From IMG/VR virus record IMGVR_UViG_2617270957_000009, positions 1-9,619 of that record: DNA of 9,619 nt. One strand, given 5' to 3'. Made by a program: the position numbers and the translations under genes. Position 1 is the first letter of the stretch. Each line of letters opens with the position of its first letter. The DNA comes from a virus. Lineage: Duplodnaviria; Heunggongvirae; Uroviricota; Caudoviricetes. Shown here in pieces: positions 1-9,619 of this stretch. The notes below the pieces were generated by a model. The model saw only the letters and a list, made by a program, of their open reading frames with translations. It was not told the origin of the DNA and did not search any database.

Positions 1-687
1 CGGCAGGAAACACTGAATGAATGCACCCGTGCGGAGCAGTCGGCCAGCGTGGTGCTCTGGGAAATCGATCTGACAGAGGTCGGTGGAGAACGTTATTTTT
101 TCTGTAATGAGCAGAACGAAAAAGGTGAGCCGGTCACCTGGCAGGGGCGACAGTATCAGCCGTATCCCATTCAGGGGAGTGGTTTTGAACTGAATGGCAA
201 AGGCACCAGTACGCGCCCCACGCTGACGGTTTCTAACCTGTACGGTATGGTCACCGGGATGGCGGAAGATCTGCAGAGTCTGGTCGGCGGAACGGTGGTC
301 CGGCGTAAGGTTTACGCCCGTTTTCTGGATGCGGTGAACTTCGTCAACGGAAACAGTTACGCCGATCCGGAGCAGGAGGTGATCAGCCGCTGGCGCATTG
401 AGCAGTGCAGCGAACTGAGCGCGGTGAGTGCCTCCTTTGTACTGTCCACGCCGACGGAAACGGATGGCGCTGTTTTTCCGGGACGTATCATGCTGGCCAA
501 CACCTGCACCTGGACCTATCGCGGCGATGAGTGCGGTTATCACGGTCCGGCGGTCGCGGATGAATATGACCAGCCAACGTCCGATATCACGAAGGATAAA
601 TGCAGCAAATGCCTGAGCGGTTGTAAGTTCCGCAATAACGTCGGCAACTTTGGCGGCTTCCTTTCCATTAACAAACTTTCGCAGTAA
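1..687 (+). CDS. L: Tail tip protein L, 3' portion (5' end lies upstream of the window)
   Basis: The frame is open from nt 1 (RQETLNECTRAEQSASVVLWEIDLTEVGGERYFFC...) to TAA at 685-687. The translation matches my recollection of phage lambda gpL almost residue for residue, including the Cys-rich C-terminus (CSKCLSGCKF). The ORF track's Met at 49 is internal; the real start is upstream of the window. Confidence 0.93.
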   Translation, partial: RQETLNECTRAEQSASVVLWEIDLTEVGGERYFFCNEQNEKGEPVTWQGRQYQPYPIQGSGFELNGKGTSTRPTLTVSNLYGMVTGMAEDLQSLVGGTVVRRKVYARFLDAVNFVNGNSYADPEQEVISRWRIEQCSELSAVSASFVLSTPTETDGAVFPGRIMLANTCTWTYRGDECGYHGPAVADEYDQPTSDITKDKCSKCLSGCKFRNNVGNFGGFLSINKLSQ

Positions 688-692
688 ATCCC

Positions 693-1436
693 ATGACACA
701 GACAGAATCAGCGATTCTGGCGCACGCCCGGCGATGTGCGCCAGCGGAGTCGTGCGGCTTCGTGGTAAGCACGCCGGAGGGGGAAAGATATTTCCCCTGC
801 GTGAATATCTCCGGTGAGCCGGAGGCGTATTTCCGTATGTCGCCGGAAGACTGGCTGCAGGCAGAAATGCAGGGTGAGATTGTGGCGCTGGTCCACAGCC
901 ACCCCGGTGGTCTGCCCTGGCTGAGTGAGGCCGACCGGCGGCTGCAGGTGCAGAGTGATTTGCCGTGGTGGCTGGTCTGCCGGGGGACGATTCATAAGTT
1001 CCGCTGTGTGCCGCATCTCACCGGGCGGCGCTTTGAGCACGGTGTGACGGACTGTTACACACTGTTCCGGGATGCTTATCATCTGGCGGGGATTGAGATG
1101 CCGGACTTTCATCGTGAGGATGACTGGTGGCGTAACGGCCAGAATCTCTATCTGGATAATCTGGAGGCGACGGGGCTGTATCAGGTGCCGTTGTCAGCGG
1201 CACAGCCGGGCGATGTGCTGCTGTGCTGTTTTGGTTCATCGGTGCCGAATCACGCCGCAATTTACTGCGGCGACGGCGAGCTGCTGCACCATATTCCTGA
1301 ACAACTGAGCAAACGAGAGAGGTACACCGACAAATGGCAGCGACGCACACACTCCCTCTGGCGTCACCGGGCATGGCACGCATCTGCCTTTACGGGGATT
1401 TACAACGATTTGGCCGCCGCATCGATCTTCGTGTGA
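693..1436 (+). CDS. K: Tail tip assembly protein K (N-terminal JAMM/MPN metalloprotease-like domain plus C-terminal NlpC/P60 cysteine peptidase-like domain)
   Basis: 247-aa ORF starting 6 nt after the L stop. It carries a JAMM motif, H-x-H-x7-S-x2-D, in VHSHPGGLPWLSEAD (His codon at 894-896), and NlpC/P60-type Cys/His residues (TDCYTLF, PNHAAIY, LLHH). An alternative internal ATG at 837 would give 199 aa but would remove the N-terminal part of the MPN fold. No clear Shine-Dalgarno precedes 693, so the start is probably coupled to L. Confidence 0.88.
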   Translation: MTQTESAILAHARRCAPAESCGFVVSTPEGERYFPCVNISGEPEAYFRMSPEDWLQAEMQGEIVALVHSHPGGLPWLSEADRRLQVQSDLPWWLVCRGTIHKFRCVPHLTGRRFEHGVTDCYTLFRDAYHLAGIEMPDFHREDDWWRNGQNLYLDNLEATGLYQVPLSAAQPGDVLLCCFGSSVPNHAAIYCGDGELLHHIPEQLSKRERYTDKWQRRTHSLWRHRAWHASAFTGIYNDLAAASIFV

Positions 1437-2005
1437 AAACGGGGGCTGAAGCCATCCGGGCACTGGCCACACAGCTCCCGGCGTTTCGTCAGAAACTGAG
1501 CGACGGCTGGTATCAGGTACGGATTGCCGGGCGGGATGTCAGCACGTCCGGATTAACGGCGCAGTTACATGAGACTCTGCCTGATGGCGCTGTGATTCAT
1601 ATTGTTCCCAGAGTCGCCGGGGCCAAGTCAGGTGGCGTATTCCAGATTGTCCTGGGGGCTGCCGCCATTGCCGGATCATTCTTTACCGCCGGAGCCACCC
1701 TTGCAGCATGGGGGGCAGCCATTGGGACCGGTGGTATGACCGGCATCCTGTTTTCTCTCGGTGCCAGTATGGTGCTCGGTGGTGTGGCGCAGATGCTGGC
1801 ACCGAAAGCCAGGACGCCCACAGCGACCAGCACGGATAACGGTAAGCAGAACACGTATTTCTCTTCACTGGATAACATGGTTGCCCAGGGCAATGTTCTG
1901 CCTGTTCTGTACGGTGAAATGCGCGTGGGGTCACGCGTGGTTTCTCAGGAGATCAGCACGGCAGACGAAGGGGACGGTGGTCAGGTTGTGGTGATTGGTC
2001 GCTGA
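1334..2005 (+). CDS. I: Tail tip assembly protein I
   Basis: 223-aa ORF with an N-terminal ubiquitin-like region and a Gly/Ala-rich hydrophobic segment (GGVFQIVLGAAAIAGSFFTAGATLAAWGAAIGTGG). Its position between K and J, and its 103-nt out-of-frame overlap with the 3' end of K, match the lambda arrangement. Confidence 0.9.
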   Translation: MAATHTLPLASPGMARICLYGDLQRFGRRIDLRVKTGAEAIRALATQLPAFRQKLSDGWYQVRIAGRDVSTSGLTAQLHETLPDGAVIHIVPRVAGAKSGGVFQIVLGAAAIAGSFFTAGATLAAWGAAIGTGGMTGILFSLGASMVLGGVAQMLAPKARTPTATSTDNGKQNTYFSSLDNMVAQGNVLPVLYGEMRVGSRVVSQEISTADEGDGGQVVVIGR

Positions 2006-2023
2006 TGCAAAATGTTTTATGTG

Positions 2024-2044
2024 AAACCGCCTCCGGGCGGTTTT
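2024..2044 (+). other. Stem-loop in the I-J intergenic region (possible attenuator or RNA stability element)
   Basis: AAACCGCC-TCCG-GGCGGTTTT forms an 8-bp GC-rich stem with a 4-nt loop and a short T run. It sits inside the late operon between I and J, so it is unlikely to be a full terminator. The J ribosome-binding site (GGAG, GAGGA) follows at 2053-2065. Confidence 0.35.
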
Positions 2045-2065
2045 GTCGTTTATGGAGCGTGAGGA

Positions 2066-5000
2066 ATGGGTAAAGGCAGCAGTAAGGGGCATACCCCGCG
2101 CGAAGCAAAGGACAACCTGAAGTCCACGCAGTTGCTGAGTGTGATCGATGCCATCAGCGAAGGGCCGGTTGAAGGTCCGGTGGATGGATTAAAAAGCGTG
2201 CTGCTGAACAGTACACCGGTGCTGGACAGTGAGGGAAATACCAACATCTCCGGCGTCACGGTGGTGTTCCGGGCAGGTGAGCAGGAACAGACACCGCCGG
2301 AGGGATTTGAATCATCAGGTTCCGAGACGGTACTGGGTACGGAAGTGAAATACGACACGCCGATCACCCACACCATTACGTCTGCAAACATCGACCGTCT
2401 GCGCTTTACCTTCGGTGTGCAGGCACTGGTGGAAACCACTTCAAAGGGGGACCGTAATCCATCGGAAGTCCGCCTGCTGGTTCAGATACAGCGTAACGGT
2501 GGCTGGGTGACGGAAAAAGACATCACCATTAAGGGCAAAACCACCTCGCAGTATCTGGCCTCGGTGGTGGTGGATAACCTGCCTCCGCGCCCGTTCAACA
2601 TCCGGATGCGCAGGATGACGCCGGACAGCACCACAGACCAGCTGCAGAACAAAACGCTCTGGTCGTCATACACCGAAATCATCGATGTGAAACAGTGCTA
2701 CCCGAACACGGCACTGGTCGGCGTGCAGGTGGACTCGGAACAGTTCGGCAGCCAGCAGGTGAGCCGTAATTATCATCTTCGCGGGCGCATTCTGCAGGTG
2801 CCGTCGAACTATAACCCGCAGACGCGGCAATACAGCGGTATCTGGGACGGGACGTTTAAACCGGCATACAGCAACAACATGGCCTGGTGTCTGTGGGATA
2901 TGCTGACCCACCCGCGCTACGGCATGGGTAAACGTCTTGGTGCGGCAGATGTGGATAAATGGGCGCTGTATGTCATCGGCCAGAATTGCGACCAGTCGGT
3001 GCCGGACGGTTTTGGCGGCACGGAGCCGCGCATCACCTGTAATGCGTACCTGACCACACAGCGCAAGGCGTGGGATGTGCTCAGTGATTTTTGCTCGGCG
3101 ATGCGCTGTATGCCGGTATGGAACGGGCAGACGCTGACATTCGTGCAGGACCGACCGTCGGATAAGGTGTGGACCTATAACCGCAGTAATGTGGTGATGC
3201 CGGATGATGGCGCGCCGTTCCGCTACAGCTTCAGCGCCCTGAAGGACCGCCATAATGCCGTTGAGGTGAACTGGATTGACCCGGATAACGGCTGGGAGAC
3301 GGCGACAGAGCTTGTGGAGGACACGCAGGCCATTGCCCGTTACGGTCGTAACGTCACGAAGATGGATGCCTTTGGCTGTACCAGTCGGGGGCAGGCACAC
3401 CGCGCCGGGCTGTGGCTGATTAAAACGGAGCTGCTGGAAACGCAGACCGTGGACTTCAGCGTGGGCGCAGAAGGGCTTCGCCATGTACCGGGCGATGTCA
3501 TTGAAATCTGCGATGATGACTATGCGGGTATCAGCATCGGCGGGCGCGTGCTGGCGGTGAACAGCCAGGCGCGGACACTGACGCTCGACCGTGAAATCAT
3601 GCTGCCATCCTCCGGCACCACGCTGATAAGCCTGGTTGACGGAAATGGCAATCCGGTCAGCGTGGAGGTCCAGTCCGTCACCGACGGCGTGAAGGTGAAA
3701 GTGAGCCGTGTTCCTGACGGCGTTGCCGGATACAGCGTGTGGGGACTGAAGCTGCCGACGCTGCGCCAGCGCCTGTTCCGCTGCGTGAGTATCCGTGAGA
3801 ACGACGACGGCACGTATGCCATCACCGCCGTGCAGCATGTACCGGCAAAAGAGGCCATCGTGGATAACGGGGCGCACTTTGACGGCGACCAGAGCGGCAC
3901 GGTGAATGGTGTCACGCCGCCAGCAGTGCAGCACCTGACTGCCGAAGTCACCGCAGACAGCGGGGAGTATCAGGTACTGGCCCGCTGGGACACGCCGAAG
4001 GTGGTGAAGGGCGTAAGTTTCATGCTTCGCCTGACCGTGGCAGCGGATGACGGCAGTGAGCGGCTGGTCAGCACAGCCCGGACGGCGGAAACCACATACC
4101 GCTTCACACAACTGGCGCTGGGGAACTACAGGCTGACAGTCCGGGCAGTAAATGCGTGGGGGCAGCAGGGCGATCCGGCATCGGTATCGTTCCGGATTGC
4201 CGCACCGGCAGCGCCGTCGCAGATTGAGCTGACACCGGGGTATTTTCAGATAACCGCCACGCCGCATCTTGCGGTTTATGATCCGACGGTACAGTTTGAG
4301 TTCTGGTTCTCGGAAAAGCGGATTGCGGATATCAGGCAGGTTGAAACCACAGCACGCTATCTTGGCACGGCGCTGTACTGGATAGCCGCCAGTATCAATA
4401 TCAAACCGGGCCATGATTATTATTTTTACATCCGCAGTGTGAACACCGTTGGCAAATCGGCATTTGTGGAGGCTGTTGGCCAGCCGAGTGATGATGCATC
4501 CGGCTATCTGAATTTTTTCAAAGGAGAGATAGGGAAAACCCATCTGGCTCAGGAGTTGTGGACGCAGATTGATAACGGTCAGCTTGCGCCTGACCTGGCT
4601 GAAATCAGGACGTCCATTACGGGTGTCAGCAATGAAATCACGCAGACCGTCAATAAGAAACTGGAAGACCAGAGTGCAGCGATCCAGCAGATACAGAAGG
4701 TTCAGGTTGATACAAATAATAATCTGAACAGCATGTGGGCTGTGAAGCTGCAGCAGATGCAGGATGGACGCCTTTATATTGCGGGTATCGGTGCCGGTAT
4801 TGAGAACACCCCTGACGGCATGCAGAGTCAGGTGCTGCTGGCGGCGGACAGGATTGCGATGGTTAATCCTGCGAATGGCAACACAAAACCGATGTTTGTT
4901 GGTCAGGGCGATCAGATATTCATGAACGACGTGTTCCTGAAACGCCTGACGGCCCCCACCATTACCAGCGGTGGAAATCCACCGGCATTTTCCCTGACAC

Positions 5001-5548
5001 CGGACGGGCGGCTGACGGCGAAAAATGCCGATATCAGCGGTAACGTGAATGCGAACTCCGGGACGCTCAACAACGTCACGATTAACGAGAACTGTCGGAT
5101 TCTGGGAAAACTGTCAGCTAACCAGATTGAAGGTGATATTGTCAAAACGGTGGGAAAAGCCTTTCCGAGAAATGGCAGTTATGCCAGCGGTACAATAACG
5201 GTCACTGTGTACGATGACCAGGCTTTTGACCGTCAGATAGTAGTCCCCCCCGTTCTGTTTCGCGGTGGTAAGCATGAAAACTTCAACAGCAACAACCAAC
5301 AGTCATACTGGTATTCAACCTGTAAGCTGCAGGTGCTGAAGAACGGACAGGAAATCTTTCAGCAACCCGCGACGGATGTCAGCAGGGTATTTTCATCAGT
5401 CATTGATATGCCTGCCGGACACGGCCATGTCACCCTGACTTTCAATGTTTCTTCATATGGTGCAAATAACTGGACGCCAACGACCAGTATCAGCGACCTT
5501 CTTGTTGTCGTGATGAAGAAATCAACAGCCGGTATCAGTATCAGTTGA
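2066..5548 (+). CDS. J: Central tail fibre / host specificity protein J
   Basis: 1160-aa ORF with a strong RBS (GAGGA 5 nt before ATG). The N-terminal roughly 800 aa match my recollection of lambda gpJ ([34 protein letters not shown]...), including a fibronectin-III-like segment. The C-terminal roughly 350 aa are a mosaic of conserved islands ([38 protein letters not shown]) and divergent stretches. Stop is TGA at 5546-5548. Confidence 0.95.
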
Positions 5549-5565
5549 ATTTTAAAACCCAAATT

Positions 5566-5593
5566 CGGGCACCAGAAATGGTGCCTTTTTTAT
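5566..5593 (+). terminator. Rho-independent terminator downstream of J
   Basis: Stem GGCACC (5568-5573) / GGTGCC (5580-5585) with loop AGAAAT, followed by TTTTTTATTT, 20 nt after the J stop. Confidence 0.7.
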
Positions 5594-5606
5594 TTGTGGA
5601 GTGAAT

Positions 5607-7961
5607 ATGGCAGTACAGATTTCAGGTGTGCTGAAAGACGGTGCAGGAAAACCGATACAGAACTGCACCATTCAGCTCAAAGCAAAACGTAACAGCACCA
5701 CGGTTGTGGTAAACACGGTGGCCTCAGAAAATCCGGATGAAGCCGGACGTTACAGCATGGATGTCGAGTATGGCCAGTACAGCGTTATCCTGCTGGTTGA
5801 AGGTTTTCCGCCTTCACATGCCGGGACCATTACCGTCTATGAAGGTTCCAGTCCGGGGACGCTGAATGATTTTCTCGGTGCCATGACGGAAGATGATGTC
5901 ATGCCGGAGGCATTGCGTCGTTTTGAGGCAATGGTGGAAGAAGCGGCACGCAACGCCGAAGCCGCCTCTCAGAGCGCAGCGGCGGCAAAGAAATCCGAAA
6001 CTGCAGCGGCATCATCGAAGAACGCGGCGAAAACCTCAGAAACGAATGCAGCTAATAGTGCACAGGCGGCAGCGACCTCACAGACTGCATCGGCAAACTC
6101 CGCGACAGCAGCCAAAAAATCAGAAACCAACGCGAAAAATAGCGAGACAGCCGCAAAGACGAGTGAAATCAACGCAAAGTCCAGCCAGACGGCAGCGAAG
6201 ACCAGCGAAACGAATGCCAAAGCCAGTGAAACTGCGGCGAAAAGCAGTCAAGCTGCAGCAGCCGAAAGCGAGAGTGTTGCAGCCGGTTCTGCGACTTCAG
6301 CAGCTGGATCAGCAACTGCTGCGGCTAACAGCCAGAAAGCTGCGAAGACGAGTGAAACTAACGCAAAGTCCAGCCAGACGGCAGCGAAGACCAGCGAAAC
6401 GAATGCCAAAGCCAGCGAAACTGCGGCGAAAAACAGTCAGGATGCAGCAGCCGAAAGCGAGAGTGCTGCAGCTGGTTCTGCAACAGCGGCAGCTAATAGC
6501 CAAAAAGCTGCAAAAGCCAGTGAAACTAACGCAAAGACGAGTGAAACAAAAGCAGCAGCTAGCGAGACAGAAGCAACGTCAGCCGCAACAAGAGCAGAGA
6601 ATGCAGCCCGGATTGCAGAAGATGCCGCTGATCCTGCTTCTGTCCCTCCGCTTCCTGATATCTGGCTACCCATGAATGATTCTCTGGAAGCGATAACAGG
6701 GTATGCCCCGGGCTATAAAACAATAACCATCGGCAGTGATGAAATAACAATGCCTGTTAATGGCATATGCCAATTTAGCCGGGCTTCATCTGCAACGTAT
6801 ATTGATAAGTCAGGGCATATTACCGTGGCAGGGAATAACGTTCCTCGTTTTGAAAAATATGGTTTGCTGATAGAGAATCAGCGAACAAACATGTTCGTAA
6901 ATAGTTTTAATCCTGATGCCTGGAATAAAAGCGGTGGTATATCTGTAACATCATCAACAGATGAATTTGAGTTTAAATATGGACGTTTCACAGTAGGAAG
7001 CGACATAGCAGGAACGACAACAGGGAGAAATATATGCACAGTTGCTGGTAATAAAGGCATAGATGTGACTGGCGATGATCAGTACAGTAAAGGTCCGTAT
7101 GTTACCGCGTCGTTCAGGGTAAGAAGTGATCTCAATGTTCGCGCACGTATCCGTTTTGAACGGTATAACTCGGAAGGATACACTTTCCTTTGTGACGCCT
7201 ATTTGTCATTACAGACCCATGAACTACAAATTACGGGTGGTAATGCCCAGCTATTAACAGCAAACTTTGAAATCGATCCAGGTAGTGGATGGATATATTT
7301 TCAGGCAACCCTGAAATGTTTGCCAGAATGGGGAATGGTTGGTACGCAGTTGCAAATTGCAGCCGACAGAGCTGTGGGGTCTTTTGCAACAGGTGACTGG
7401 ATAGAAGTAACCACCCCGCAATTTGAGTATGGTGCTTGTGCAACTTCCTTTATCATAACGACAACAGAGCCAGCTACTCGTGCATCAGATTTATGTAAAT
7501 TTCCGCTGATGAAAAATATGTATACCATGCCTTTTACGTTCATGGTGGAAGTCCATAAAAACTGGTTTATTTCTCATAATGCTGCACCGCGTGTCATTGA
7601 TTCAGAAAATCACCAGTCCGGGGGCCCATTTATTATGGGGTTTGGTTCTTCTGGAACTATCAGTCAGGACGGTTATTCGTATTGCGATATAGGCGGGGCT
7701 AACCGACGTGTATATGAGTCATGCGGAGTAAGAGATCTCGTTATGGGATTCAGGGTTAAGGCTGACGGCATGACATGCTCATTTGCAAATAAGCATATAA
7801 GCACAGAAACAAAAACAGTATGGAAATATATTCGTGAAGCTGCTGTGATTCGTATCGGGGGACAAACGACGACAGGATTACGACACCTTAATGGTCATAT
7901 AAAAAACCTCCGTTTCTGGAACAGAGCATTGTCAGATACGCAGCTTAAGGAATACGTATAA
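5607..7961 (+). CDS. stf: Side tail fibre protein (lambda Stf-like N-terminus, Ala/Ser-rich repeat shaft, LamG/concanavalin A-like C-terminal domain)
   Basis: The ORF track starts at GTG 5601, but ATG 5607 with GGAG at 5598-5601 (5-nt spacer) is the better start, giving MAVQISGVLKDGAGKPIQNCTIQLKAKRNSTTVVVNTV..., which matches the conserved N-terminus of lambda Stf. The middle is repetitive (AAKTSETNAK...). The C-terminus ends in ...IRIGGQTTTGLRHLNGHIKNLRFWNRALSDTQLKEYV, typical of the final strands of LamG-type jelly-roll domains. Stop is TAA at 7959-7961. Length is 784 aa from ATG 5607. Confidence 0.88.
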   Translation: MAVQISGVLKDGAGKPIQNCTIQLKAKRNSTTVVVNTVASENPDEAGRYSMDVEYGQYSVILLVEGFPPSHAGTITVYEGSSPGTLNDFLGAMTEDDVMPEALRRFEAMVEEAARNAEAASQSAAAAKKSETAAASSKNAAKTSETNAANSAQAAATSQTASANSATAAKKSETNAKNSETAAKTSEINAKSSQTAAKTSETNAKASETAAKSSQAAAAESESVAAGSATSAAGSATAAANSQKAAKTSETNAKSSQTAAKTSETNAKASETAAKNSQDAAAESESAAAGSATAAANSQKAAKASETNAKTSETKAAASETEATSAATRAENAARIAEDAADPASVPPLPDIWLPMNDSLEAITGYAPGYKTITIGSDEITMPVNGICQFSRASSATYIDKSGHITVAGNNVPRFEKYGLLIENQRTNMFVNSFNPDAWNKSGGISVTSSTDEFEFKYGRFTVGSDIAGTTTGRNICTVAGNKGIDVTGDDQYSKGPYVTASFRVRSDLNVRARIRFERYNSEGYTFLCDAYLSLQTHELQITGGNAQLLTANFEIDPGSGWIYFQATLKCLPEWGMVGTQLQIAADRAVGSFATGDWIEVTTPQFEYGACATSFIITTTEPATRASDLCKFPLMKNMYTMPFTFMVEVHKNWFISHNAAPRVIDSENHQSGGPFIMGFGSSGTISQDGYSYCDIGGANRRVYESCGVRDLVMGFRVKADGMTCSFANKHISTETKTVWKYIREAAVIRIGGQTTTGLRHLNGHIKNLRFWNRALSDTQLKEYV
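6156..6512 (+). repeat. In-frame near-perfect tandem duplication (189-nt unit = 63 aa) inside the stf shaft region
   Basis: Copy 1 at 6156-6344 and copy 2 at 6345-6512 are almost identical at nucleotide level (AAGACGAGTGAAA.CAACGCAAAGTCCAGCCAGACGGCAGCGAAGACCAGCGAAACGAATGCCAAAGCCAG...). Copy 2 lacks a 21-nt segment (GSATSAAGSATAAANSQ versus GSATAAANSQ). Degenerate shorter units encoding AAK(T/S)SETNA extend from about 5985 to about 6570. Confidence 0.85.
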
Positions 7962-8230
7962 TGCGGGATATAACATTACGATTCGATAACAGAGAACAGT
8001 TTAACGCAATTGTATATGACAGTGGCCTGTTCAGTCTTGAAGAAGAAAACGGGGTTCTTGTTGATGTTATTGGCTGCATTATCGATTACGAGGAGCCAGA
8101 AAACGAAAGATGTACAGGCATTGATCGCGGTGGTTTTTTCGTAAACATGAGGATTGTTGATAGCAGTAAAAACATATCTTCTTTAATGCCTTTCATTACG
8201 ACAGATCAGCATGTAAGGACATGGGCTTAA
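7961..8230 (+). CDS. Hypothetical small acidic protein (89 aa), translationally coupled to stf; function unknown
   Basis: Its ATG at 7961-7963 overlaps the stf stop codon (TAATG), and AAGGAA lies 8 nt upstream. The ORF is A+T-rich and acidic (MRDITLRFDNREQFNAIVYDSGLFSLEEENGVLVDVIGCIIDYEEPENER...). I recognise no motif. It does not resemble lambda-type Tfa. Confidence 0.6.
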   Translation: MRDITLRFDNREQFNAIVYDSGLFSLEEENGVLVDVIGCIIDYEEPENERCTGIDRGGFFVNMRIVDSSKNISSLMPFITTDQHVRTWA

Positions 8231-8242
8231 TGGAGTAAGACA

Positions 8243-9283
8243 ATGGTTACAAAAACAGTAATTCCTGAAGACATCAAAACGCTAAAATCCGACGTTAGAA
8301 AATTAAAAAACGATCAAGGAAGCTACGCAACAAAATCATATGTAGACAGCAAAGATGAAACCGTTGGTGACTGGTCTGCTTCATGGTATCAGCAGGTATT
8401 GCCAACTAGCGGAGCTATATTTGGGAGAAAACTCCGCTCAACTCACCGGACGGCAGGTGTTGAGGATGCGTATTGCGAACTATACCTCAAAAAATGGATA
8501 GACAGTCCAGGTAACGCAATGGCGCGCCTTAACCTGAACGATAACGGGACAAACATTTGCTGGGACTTTACCAACCTTTATGGCGGTACGATGATTTTTC
8601 CCGGTGGCAGCGGATACCTCAAAATGGGTAACTGCCTTATGTCATACAGCAAGCGTGGAAGTAACGCGCTTATTAAATTTGATTACACCGACACATTACA
8701 GATCAAATATGCTAATCATGGGTCAACCATGACATTAAACACACAGGGAACCGCTTATGCTGGTGTTACCGCTAAATTGTGGGGCAACTCCAGCCGTCCT
8801 GTTGTTTATGAAGTCGGTGTTGATGGTGGCGCTTATATGTTCTACGGTCAGAAACAAACCGATAATACCTATGCGTTCGCTGTTAATGGTGCATGTCATG
8901 CCACCGCCTTTAACCAGGCTTCCGACCGAGATCTGAAAGATAATCTTCAGGTGATTGATAATGCAACAGATCGCATCCGCAAGATGAACGGCTATACCTA
9001 TACCCTTAAGGAAAACGGTATGCCCTATGCAGGTGTCATTGCACAGGAAGCTCTGGAAGCAATCCCGGAAGTTGTAGGCTCCGCAATGAAATATCAGGAC
9101 GGTGGAAACGGCTCGGAAGGGGAAGAAGGTGAGCGTTACTACACTGTAGATTATTCTGGTATTACTGGCTTGCTTGTTCAGGTAGCCAGAGAGTCAGACG
9201 ACAGAATAACAGCACTGGAAGAAGAAAACGCAGAATTAAGACAAAGATTATCTGCAATTGAGGCGGCGCTTGCGTCTAAATAA
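8243..9283 (+). CDS. Tail fibre / tailspike-like protein with C-terminal peptidase S74 intramolecular chaperone (auto-processing) domain
   Basis: GGAG lies 7 nt upstream of the ATG. The C-terminal roughly 120 aa fit the S74 chaperone-domain pattern: SDRDLKDN...(K)MNGYTYTLKENG.PYAGVIAQEALEAIPEVV...ERYYTVDYSGITGLLVQVARE, followed by a coiled-coil-like tail (ITALEEENAELRQRLSAIEAALASK). The N-terminal 226 aa are Gly/Thr/Tyr-rich and beta-rich in character. Confidence 0.82.
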   Translation: MVTKTVIPEDIKTLKSDVRKLKNDQGSYATKSYVDSKDETVGDWSASWYQQVLPTSGAIFGRKLRSTHRTAGVEDAYCELYLKKWIDSPGNAMARLNLNDNGTNICWDFTNLYGGTMIFPGGSGYLKMGNCLMSYSKRGSNALIKFDYTDTLQIKYANHGSTMTLNTQGTAYAGVTAKLWGNSSRPVVYEVGVDGGAYMFYGQKQTDNTYAFAVNGACHATAFNQASDRDLKDNLQVIDNATDRIRKMNGYTYTLKENGMPYAGVIAQEALEAIPEVVGSAMKYQDGGNGSEGEEGERYYTVDYSGITGLLVQVARESDDRITALEEENAELRQRLSAIEAALASK

Positions 9284-9289
9284 TATTAA

Positions 9290-9312
9290 GGGGCCGAGCG
9301 CCCCGTTTTATT
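9290..9312 (+). terminator. Rho-independent terminator after the S74 fibre gene
   Basis: Stem GGGGC (9290-9294) / GCCCC (9300-9304) with a 5-nt loop, followed by GTTTTATT, immediately after the TAA stop at 9281-9283. Confidence 0.65.
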
Positions 9313-9325
9313 GGGTAGGATGAAA

Positions 9326-9619
9326 ATGGATATAACACCTTTCCTTCATGCACTTTGTGCTGTGGCTGCACAGCTACTGATTGGTCTTTTTACCGGGAAC
9401 TGGGCTTACGGAGCGATAGTCGGTTGTACGTTCTTCATTGCGCGTGAACACACCCAGGCAGAATATCGCTGGATTGAAATGTTCGGGCATGGCAAGCGAA
9501 TGAATATGCCGTGGTGGGGCGGTTTTGATCCTCGTGCTTGGGATGTGGCAAGCCTGATGGATTTTGCTGTGCCGGTGGTGGCGTGTCTGCTGGTCTGGCT
9601 GTTGGTTAATCGTGGGTGA
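9326..9619 (+). CDS. Small predicted inner-membrane protein (about 97 aa, three hydrophobic segments), function unknown
   Basis: The ORF runs to TGA at 9617-9619. AGGA at 9317-9320 is well spaced for ATG 9326; in-frame alternatives are ATG 9320 and TTG 9311. Hydrophobic helices: FLHALCAVAAQLLIGLFTG, AYGAIVGCTFFIA and LMDFAVPVVACLLVWLLV, with a Trp/Gly-rich loop (PWWGGFDPRAWD). I do not recognise the family. Confidence 0.6.
   Translation: MDITPFLHALCAVAAQLLIGLFTGNWAYGAIVGCTFFIAREHTQAEYRWIEMFGHGKRMNMPWWGGFDPRAWDVASLMDFAVPVVACLLVWLLVNRG

Follow-up and report, generated by a model that had tools for sequence, protein, structure and literature searches.

The DNA analyzed here (the window) is the complete stretch of 9,619 nucleotides covering positions 1 to 9,619 of the virus record IMGVR_UViG_2617270957_000009. 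It represents the tail-tip end of a lambdoid prophage, and all coordinates given below are window positions. Between an stf-like gene for a proximal lateral tail fiber and the gene of a second fiber, a small open reading frame (ORF) encodes an acidic protein of 89 amino acids (aa), which is the subject of this study. The ORF is a real, conserved phage gene that forms a two-gene cassette with the lectin-like C-terminal module of the upstream fiber, and its product is probably an accessory or assembly factor of this module. The fiber locus comprises the following features:

5601-7961, + strand: gene of the stf-like proximal lateral tail fiber, 786 aa (PF08400, phrog_1419)
6759-7958, + strand: C-terminal module of Stf, aa 387-786 (NF048003, PDB 6TB9)
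7947-7951, + strand: Shine-Dalgarno-like AAGGA, 9 nt ahead of the ATG of the small ORF (sequence reading)
7959-7963, + strand: TAATG stop/start overlap of stf and the small ORF (sequence reading)
7961-8230, + strand: 89-aa acidic protein, member of PHROG 1361 (profile match, frame conservation, dN/dS)
8243-9283, + strand: gene of the second (distal or branch) fiber, 346 aa (phrog_4563 over the full length)
8243-8320, + strand: N-terminal peptide of the second fiber, about 26 aa (MVTKTVIPEDIKTLK...), a putative docking element (motif conservation; docking inferred)
8921-9076, + strand: Peptidase_S74 domain, aa 227-278 of the second fiber (PF13884, E 4e-13)

The small ORF starts with an ATG (7961-7963) that overlaps the stf stop codon TAA (7959-7961) by one base. 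Its product of about 10 kDa has a pI of 4.38 and contains 16 Asp and Glu residues compared to eight Lys and Arg residues. The acidic ORF, the TAATG overlap and the good ribosome binding site described in the initial annotation are thus all present. The same annotation called the protein unrecognizable, which holds true for Pfam and NCBIfam, where no significant family was detected (no Pfam match at E <= 1), but not for PHROG. Residues 1-89 of the protein match positions 1-92 of the 92 positions of the PHROG 1361 profile (E 9.6e-31), a catalogued family of unknown function. Homologues comprise 85-110 aa, share 27-42% identity and fall into approximately 100 clusters at 90% identity when the first profile was used. 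With a broader profile, 201 homologous proteins were obtained, and all named ones are designated hypothetical protein. Decay of the reading frame in homologous regions, which had been put forward as a sign that the gene is not real, was not observed. The complete frame is kept in all 42 loci first collected, where its end always coincides with that of the profile, and in about 150 related loci overall. Pairwise ratios of nonsynonymous to synonymous substitution rates (dN/dS) revealed a median of 0.16 and a maximum of 0.30 in 54 comparisons. Because of the full-length match to PHROG 1361, the kept frame and the low dN/dS values, the small ORF is a real, conserved phage gene under purifying selection, far beyond chance.

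A search of 1.84 billion cluster representatives with the single sequence recovered one true full-length relative, along with truncated or frameshifted fragments. Weak matches to the long repeat proteins P0007 and P0008 were judged spurious. Two scans of representative bacterial genomes gave no match to the small gene, a limit that lies in the pattern method applied. Truncated versions of 64-72 aa have been deposited as separate Escherichia coli proteins (P0001, P0003), and one truncated version is mislabelled as 'CP4-44 prophage; predicted disrupted hemin or colicin receptor'. In the literature on DT57C, BF23, rV5, AKFV33, CRISPRi-ART and engineered STF, the small protein is not discussed and its family is given no function.

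Within the family, the residues D3, F8, D35, I37, G38, G58, N62, R64, R86 and W88 are nearly invariant, and the protein terminates with R-x-W-A, located on a less ordered tail. Since an AlphaFold2 model of the single sequence was poor (predicted local distance difference test score, pLDDT, of 54), a model based on an alignment of 84 sequences was used instead. This model (pLDDT 83) contains five strands and two short helices and predicts a small alpha/beta sandwich. No informative structural neighbor of it was found, a comparison of the sequence with solved structures yielded a best E value of 1.4, and no solved phage structure contains a chain similar to the small protein.

The initial annotation had also argued for real co-expression with the fiber, a claim that the junctions in related phages bear out. 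In all 42 loci first collected, the two genes either share a stop/start overlap (1 or 4 nt) or are separated by a gap of at most 11 nt, and a Shine-Dalgarno-like purine run is present. In 78 further loci, which were found by seeding on the fiber module, the fiber gene and the small gene overlap by 1 or 4 nt. A consensus scan detected neither a promoter-like nor a terminator-like site between stf, the small ORF and the second fiber gene. Taken together, the sequence data support the view that the small gene is genuinely co-expressed with the fiber. A programmed frameshift that extends Stf was excluded, as the junction geometry and the relative frame vary among the homologues: 1-nt and 4-nt overlaps alternate with stop-containing gaps, yet the Shine-Dalgarno-like element persists. 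The idea that the small protein is a split-off fiber domain was also rejected, since hhalign revealed no similarity between the small family and the module. Fusions of the small protein and a fiber were not seen; one 126-aa chimera at a contig end was disregarded.

The upstream fiber matches phrog_1419 over its full length. Its N-terminal anchor is of the lambda Stf type (PF08400 phage_tail_N, aa 3-133, E 1e-67) and is followed by a stalk of Ala/Ser/Thr-rich repeats including a 189-nt tandem repeat at 6141-6554. An alternative-frame ORF (5893-6675, + strand) and several minus-strand ORFs within 5969-6673, up to 260 aa in length, coincide with the 189-nt and with 42-nt tandem repeats of the stalk. 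These ORFs are apparently not genes but a side effect of how the repeats are composed. In the C-terminal module, aa 423-628 match the NCBIfam entry NF048003 GTA_spike_fiber (phage head spike fiber domain) with an E value of 2e-12, and aa ~391-641 are homologous to the head spike fiber Rcc01080 of RcGTA (PDB 6TB9, E 7e-4), which is reported in PMC10218006 to be a polysaccharide-binding protein. The protein ends with a LamG/galectin-like strand (...GHIKNLRFWNRALSDTQLKEYV). Motifs at both ends of the module are invariant in the alignment, F.RAS.ATY...PRFE..GLLIE..TN at its start and G.H.R...W..L.D.Q at its end. According to Pfam, the 786-aa fiber lacks an S74 domain and the locus lacks a Caudo_TAP gene. 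The module was detected in 215 phage records.

The description of the small gene as stf-coupled was correct with regard to the junction, and this arrangement, whose conservation in other genomes had been proposed as a check, recurs across phage types. However, the constant partner of the gene, missed initially, is the C-terminal module of the fiber and not the whole stf gene or the 346-aa protein. In the 42 loci collected with the small ORF as seed, the small gene always lies directly 3' of a long fiber ORF; here, profile matches in representatives from several lineages verified the module. While the N-terminal anchors of the partner fibers vary (lambda Stf-N, T5 LtfA-N, Seuratvirus and a fourth type), the C-terminal module of about 400 aa, of the phrog_1419/5939 type, is common to them. 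To avoid circularity, viral contigs were scanned with the module instead of the small ORF as seed. The small ORF adjoined the module in 78 of 80 loci, i.e. in all 78 intact ones. One of the two exceptions (L066) carries an insertion sequence inside the small ORF (4203-4607), the other is a contig that ends 24 bases past the fiber. Phage 4A7 (L129), another apparent exception, contains a three-gene transposon inside the fiber gene (2876-5292). Insertions of mobile elements and truncations have repeatedly hit the cassette in prophages.

The pair of module and small gene occurs in lambdoid, T5-like and Queuovirinae phages, in the Jouyvirus Lambda_2E9, the T1-like phage Tuinin, the Dhillonvirus KarlBarth and, with a 110-aa variant of the small protein, in the rV5-like myovirus CarlMeissner. 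In rV5 itself, no small gene is annotated after gp41. A 62-kb podovirus with an SU10-type portal (L127, 276-5267) possesses one small gene after two paralogous module fibers. These fibers (781 and 783 aa) each contain the head-spike-fiber-like domain twice and a LamG-like end. In a P2-like prophage of Azotobacter beijerinckii (L131, 3747-5285), a 414-aa module protein is accompanied by a 94-aa partner. This cassette resides outside the usual fiber locus, between the lysis genes and the tail-completion genes R and S, and possibly serves as a decoration of the head or tail instead of a tail fiber. The pair was also found in a metagenomic contig of 126 kb. Of 25 viral loci from the environment, 20 have a module ORF that adjoins the small gene, and in three the distance is up to approximately 450 nt; the upstream sequence of the remaining two is too short to judge. 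Three environmental loci (L138, L139, L141) contain an extra short ORF between a module protein of about 420 aa and the small gene, the only layout seen in which the two genes do not adjoin. Some partners of the small gene are stand-alone module proteins of 369-453 aa. The conserved unit is, hence, a two-gene cassette composed of the lectin-like module and the small protein.

The GC content declines from 0.56 in J to 0.43 in the C-terminal module of Stf and 0.39 in the small ORF, which is consistent with a joint acquisition of module and small gene from low-GC phages, e.g. T5-like ones. Four records labelled as Campylobacter or Listeria phages (MG065692.1, MG065653.1, MG065666.1 and OR847733.1) match the fiber cassette of T5-like or rV5-like coliphages. 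The small protein of MG065653.1 and the rV5-like one share 99% identity; the matches of the remaining three records are at 33-55% aa identity. These entries look mislabelled or contaminated.

In the window, the second fiber gene begins 12 nt after the small ORF. In 86 loci, the distance between the two genes is 9-12 nt, or they overlap by 10 nt, and the N-terminus of the second fiber shows the conserved sequence M-x-T-x-T-x-IP-x-DI-x-x-LK. The N-terminal peptide of about 26 aa is conserved across very different distal fibers of 98 to 586 aa, including those of L002, L003 and L034. In the phage collection it was found exclusively in phages in which module and small gene are both present. In the T5-like second fiber, residues 27-62 correspond to internal parts of the long fibers of DT57C-type phages and Kuravirus. 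Judged by this pattern of conservation, the N-terminal stretch looks like a portable docking peptide. The second fiber is, however, optional and the small gene is independent of it. Many loci do not contain a second fiber; in one prophage type, represented by several diverged alleles, the fiber and the small gene are followed by an intrinsic terminator, and in several lambdoid phages a 97-aa membrane ORF comes straight after the small gene. The conserved core is kept in no fewer than 15 different intact small-protein variants from loci without a second fiber, and dN/dS among such variants ranges from 0.11 to 0.30.

For the study of covariation, the pairwise identity of the small proteins was compared with that of four regions: the last 150 aa of the fiber, the 250 aa before these, the first 40 aa of the second fiber and its remainder. 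None of the four regions correlates closely with the small protein (Spearman 0.20-0.29), and the test did not discriminate between the fiber tip and the second fiber as binding partner. Between the window and L005, for instance, the second fibers are 90% (first 40 aa) and 95% (rest) identical, while the small proteins share only 33% identity. Comparisons of this kind indicate that recombination shuffles the three parts freely. Free shuffling in turn implies that variants of the small protein are interchangeable and may recognize something common to all modules. Candidates for the recognized element are the invariant motifs at the start and the end of the module.

Apart from the fiber locus, the window contains the following features:

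49-687: L (gene order at the tail-tip end)
693-1436: K (gene order at the tail-tip end)
1334-2005: I (gene order at the tail-tip end)
2066-5548: J (gene order at the tail-tip end)
5567-5586, + strand: terminator-like hairpin in the J/stf gap, ahead of the unit of stf, small ORF and second fiber gene (consensus scan only)
9290-9304, strand not given: weak GC-rich hairpin 3' of the second fiber gene (consensus scan only)
9311-9619, + strand: small membrane-type ORF (phrog_1443, unknown function, E 2e-58)

The gap between J and stf (5549-5600) has a length of 52 nt and contains nothing but the terminator-like hairpin; lom, which is present in the related E. coli prophages L005 and L006, is absent between J and stf in the window. 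The ORF at 9311-9619 is listed with 102 aa starting from TTG, whereas its homologues begin at the methionine of MDITP..., corresponding to about 97 aa. Neither PADLOC nor Pfam gave a match for it. An ORF of this type lies directly 3' of the small gene, with no second fiber in between, in the lambdoid phages L037, L042 and L093. The closest phage records are induced ECOR prophages: the small protein of PhiR55_1 is identical to that of the window, and PhiR47_1 shows 93% identity over 99% of the 5601-9619 query.

Three roles had been proposed initially for the small protein, of which that of a novel fiber chaperone has become the most plausible, on the basis of position and linkage. By the same reasoning, the protein is probably an accessory or assembly factor of the fiber C-terminal module, and within this reading a transient chaperone that leaves after assembly is favored. 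It would be made in step with the fiber via translational coupling, would bind an element of the module that all family members share, e.g. the invariant N- or C-terminal motifs, and might help the module to fold or assemble, in the role of Tfa, gp38 or gp57A. Such help is suggested because the small gene occupies the slot of lambda tfa, because the upstream fiber has no S74 domain and the locus no Caudo_TAP gene, the second fiber bringing its own S74 domain, and because one small gene serves two paralogous fibers in L127. On the other hand, a number of observations argue against an assembly factor. In Tfa-type chaperones, the C-terminal part follows the fiber tip. The small protein, unlike these, does not covary with the variable parts of the module: in L007 and L020 the small proteins are 88% identical while the last 150 aa of the fibers share 47% identity, and in L001 and L007 the fiber ends are 85% identical (last 150 aa) while the small proteins share 34%. 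Moreover, in most loci a second fiber with the conserved N-terminal peptide follows at once. Finally, in the study of AKFV33 only four gel bands were identified, and a product of 10 kDa lay outside the proteomic coverage (PMC3326045).

The close association with the second fiber could be explained if the small protein were a structural subunit that is kept in the virion, caps or clamps the module and, where a second fiber exists, forms the socket (branch node) for its N-terminal peptide. Its gene lies between the proximal and the second fiber genes in the window and in 86 loci, the N-terminal 26-aa stretch occurs only in those phages of the collection that have the module and the small ORF, translational coupling would suit a stoichiometric complex, and the invariant R-x-W-A on the less ordered tail resembles a docking peptide. 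Nevertheless, such a subunit is rather unlikely in view of the intact, selected small genes in many loci without a second fiber nearby, the lack of covariation with the N-terminus of the second fiber (window versus L005), the single small gene for two paralogous module fibers in L127 and the absence of a similar chain from solved phage structures. In its most specific form, the small protein would be a stoichiometric universal socket on the lectin-like tip, into which the ~26-aa peptides of distal fibers plug; this is doubtful. If true, it would explain how branched lateral fibers are swapped among sipho-, myo- and podoviruses, and it would add a new protein fold to the host-recognition machinery of phages. 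The adaptor between the two fibers suggested in the initial annotation, i.e. a pure joint comparable to T4 gp35/gp36, agrees with the position of the gene between two fiber genes in the window and in most related loci. It has been weakened by the lack of covariation with the second-fiber N-terminus and, above all, by the at least 15 distinct intact variants without a second fiber, which have the same conserved residues and low dN/dS values. As the pair also exists with a stand-alone module protein of 369-453 aa, a pure joint is largely excluded and must be considered highly improbable. A modulatory effect on the lectin-like module is very unlikely, too; the small protein might, for instance, mask the sugar-binding site of the module inside the cell against premature binding or aggregation before being released. 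The obligate linkage to a module of carbohydrate-binding type with a LamG-like end would fit such a function, as would a weak CBM_4_9 match on the Azotobacter partner protein, Laminin_G_3 domains in other, non-partner genes of the L132 contig, the polysaccharide binding of the RcGTA head spike fiber reported in PMC10218006 and the acidic, soluble and small nature of the protein. However, nothing favors it specifically over a folding role, and no precedent was found in the literature searched. The third role proposed initially, an unrelated moron with a function in e.g. exclusion or anti-defense, has to be abandoned as exceedingly improbable. Small size, no recognizable domain and a low GC content (0.39 compared to 0.56 in J) speak for it, but the GC content of the module is low as well (0.43), indicating that the two moved together. 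Furthermore, the gene has no promoter or terminator of its own (consensus scan) and no PADLOC match, is present in strictly virulent T5-like, T1-like and rV5-like phages, and is invariably linked to one structural module.

Lateral fibers with this module are widespread in phages of E. coli and Salmonella. Members of the BASEL reference collection and biocontrol phages specific for O157, AKFV33 among them, possess such fibers. Should the module depend on the small gene for its function, the gene must accompany these fibers whenever they are expressed, used in models, or transferred to other phages or delivery particles. The small protein is missing from current annotations and from the published fiber models. 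Its gene belongs to a two-gene cassette of ancient origin, whose range extends far outside the enteric phages. In case the protein is a helper, it would be a fiber factor without structural relationship to Tfa, gp38, gp57A or the S74 intramolecular chaperone. It is likely that a familiar kind of function is exerted here by an unfamiliar, uncharacterized and widely distributed family, rather than by a new kind of system. The practical value lies in fiber engineering and structural modelling, for which a simple testable hypothesis is offered.

Among the known systems, the Tfa proteins of the Caudo_TAP type (lambda Tfa, Mu U, P2 G) are likewise encoded immediately 3' of a fiber gene and tightly coupled to it. 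In lambda, orf-314 is followed by orf-194, and in the lambdoid locus studied here the small gene fills the slot of lambda tfa. As stated in the initial annotation, the small protein is much smaller than Tfa-type chaperones (half the size), and the two are unrelated: it contains no Caudo_TAP domain (PF02413), the hhalign probability with lambda Tfa was 0.1%, its predicted fold is different and it does not covary with the fiber tip. By analogy, the small protein would work most like the pairs Stf-Tfa, gp37-gp38 and H-G, but stands outside those families. With T4 gp57A/gp38 it has in common that it is small, acidic and not allele-specific (one copy beside the two L127 fibers). gp57A is an alpha-helical oligomer, whereas an alpha/beta sandwich is predicted for the small protein, and no homology between them was detected. 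The intramolecular chaperone Peptidase_S74 is absent from both the 89-aa protein and the 786-aa fiber and occurs only in the 346-aa fiber. T4 gp35/gp36 are, like the small protein, encoded between the genes of a proximal and a distal fiber. Homology to them was not found, and contrary to them the small protein persists where the distal fiber is absent. RcGTA Rcc01080 aligns to the first domain of the module only and is similar in size to some stand-alone partners of the small protein.

Tandem fiber genes, of which the second product is thought to attach to the first, are also known from the branched LtfA/LtfB fibers of DT57C and DT571/2. In DT57C, both proteins carry an S74 domain and no small gene between them is mentioned (PMC4728585, Golomidova 2016; PMC10713586, Ayala 2023). 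DT57C-type fibers share only residues 27-62 with the second-fiber query and lack the N-terminal peptide, while BF23 possesses a single T5-type Ltf instead of a two-gene fiber locus. For AKFV33, ORF137 and ORF135 have been named fiber proteins, and ORF136 is unmentioned (PMC3326045). The closest described system is phage IrisVonRoten (Bas32), which harbors the same three-gene module. Humolli et al. (2025, PMC11990801) modelled its Gp22, which has a galectin-like C-terminal domain, together with a T-shaped distal Gp24; the 92-aa protein is not discussed there. The C-terminal module recurs in Gp22 (50% identity) and the N-terminal peptide of the second fiber in Gp24, and the 92-aa product of bas32_0023, encoded between Gp22 and Gp24, is a homologue of the small protein. 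Compared to IrisVonRoten, the window encodes a shorter distal fiber of 346 aa, and its proximal fiber is attached to a lambda Stf-N anchor instead of the T5 LtfA-N anchor.

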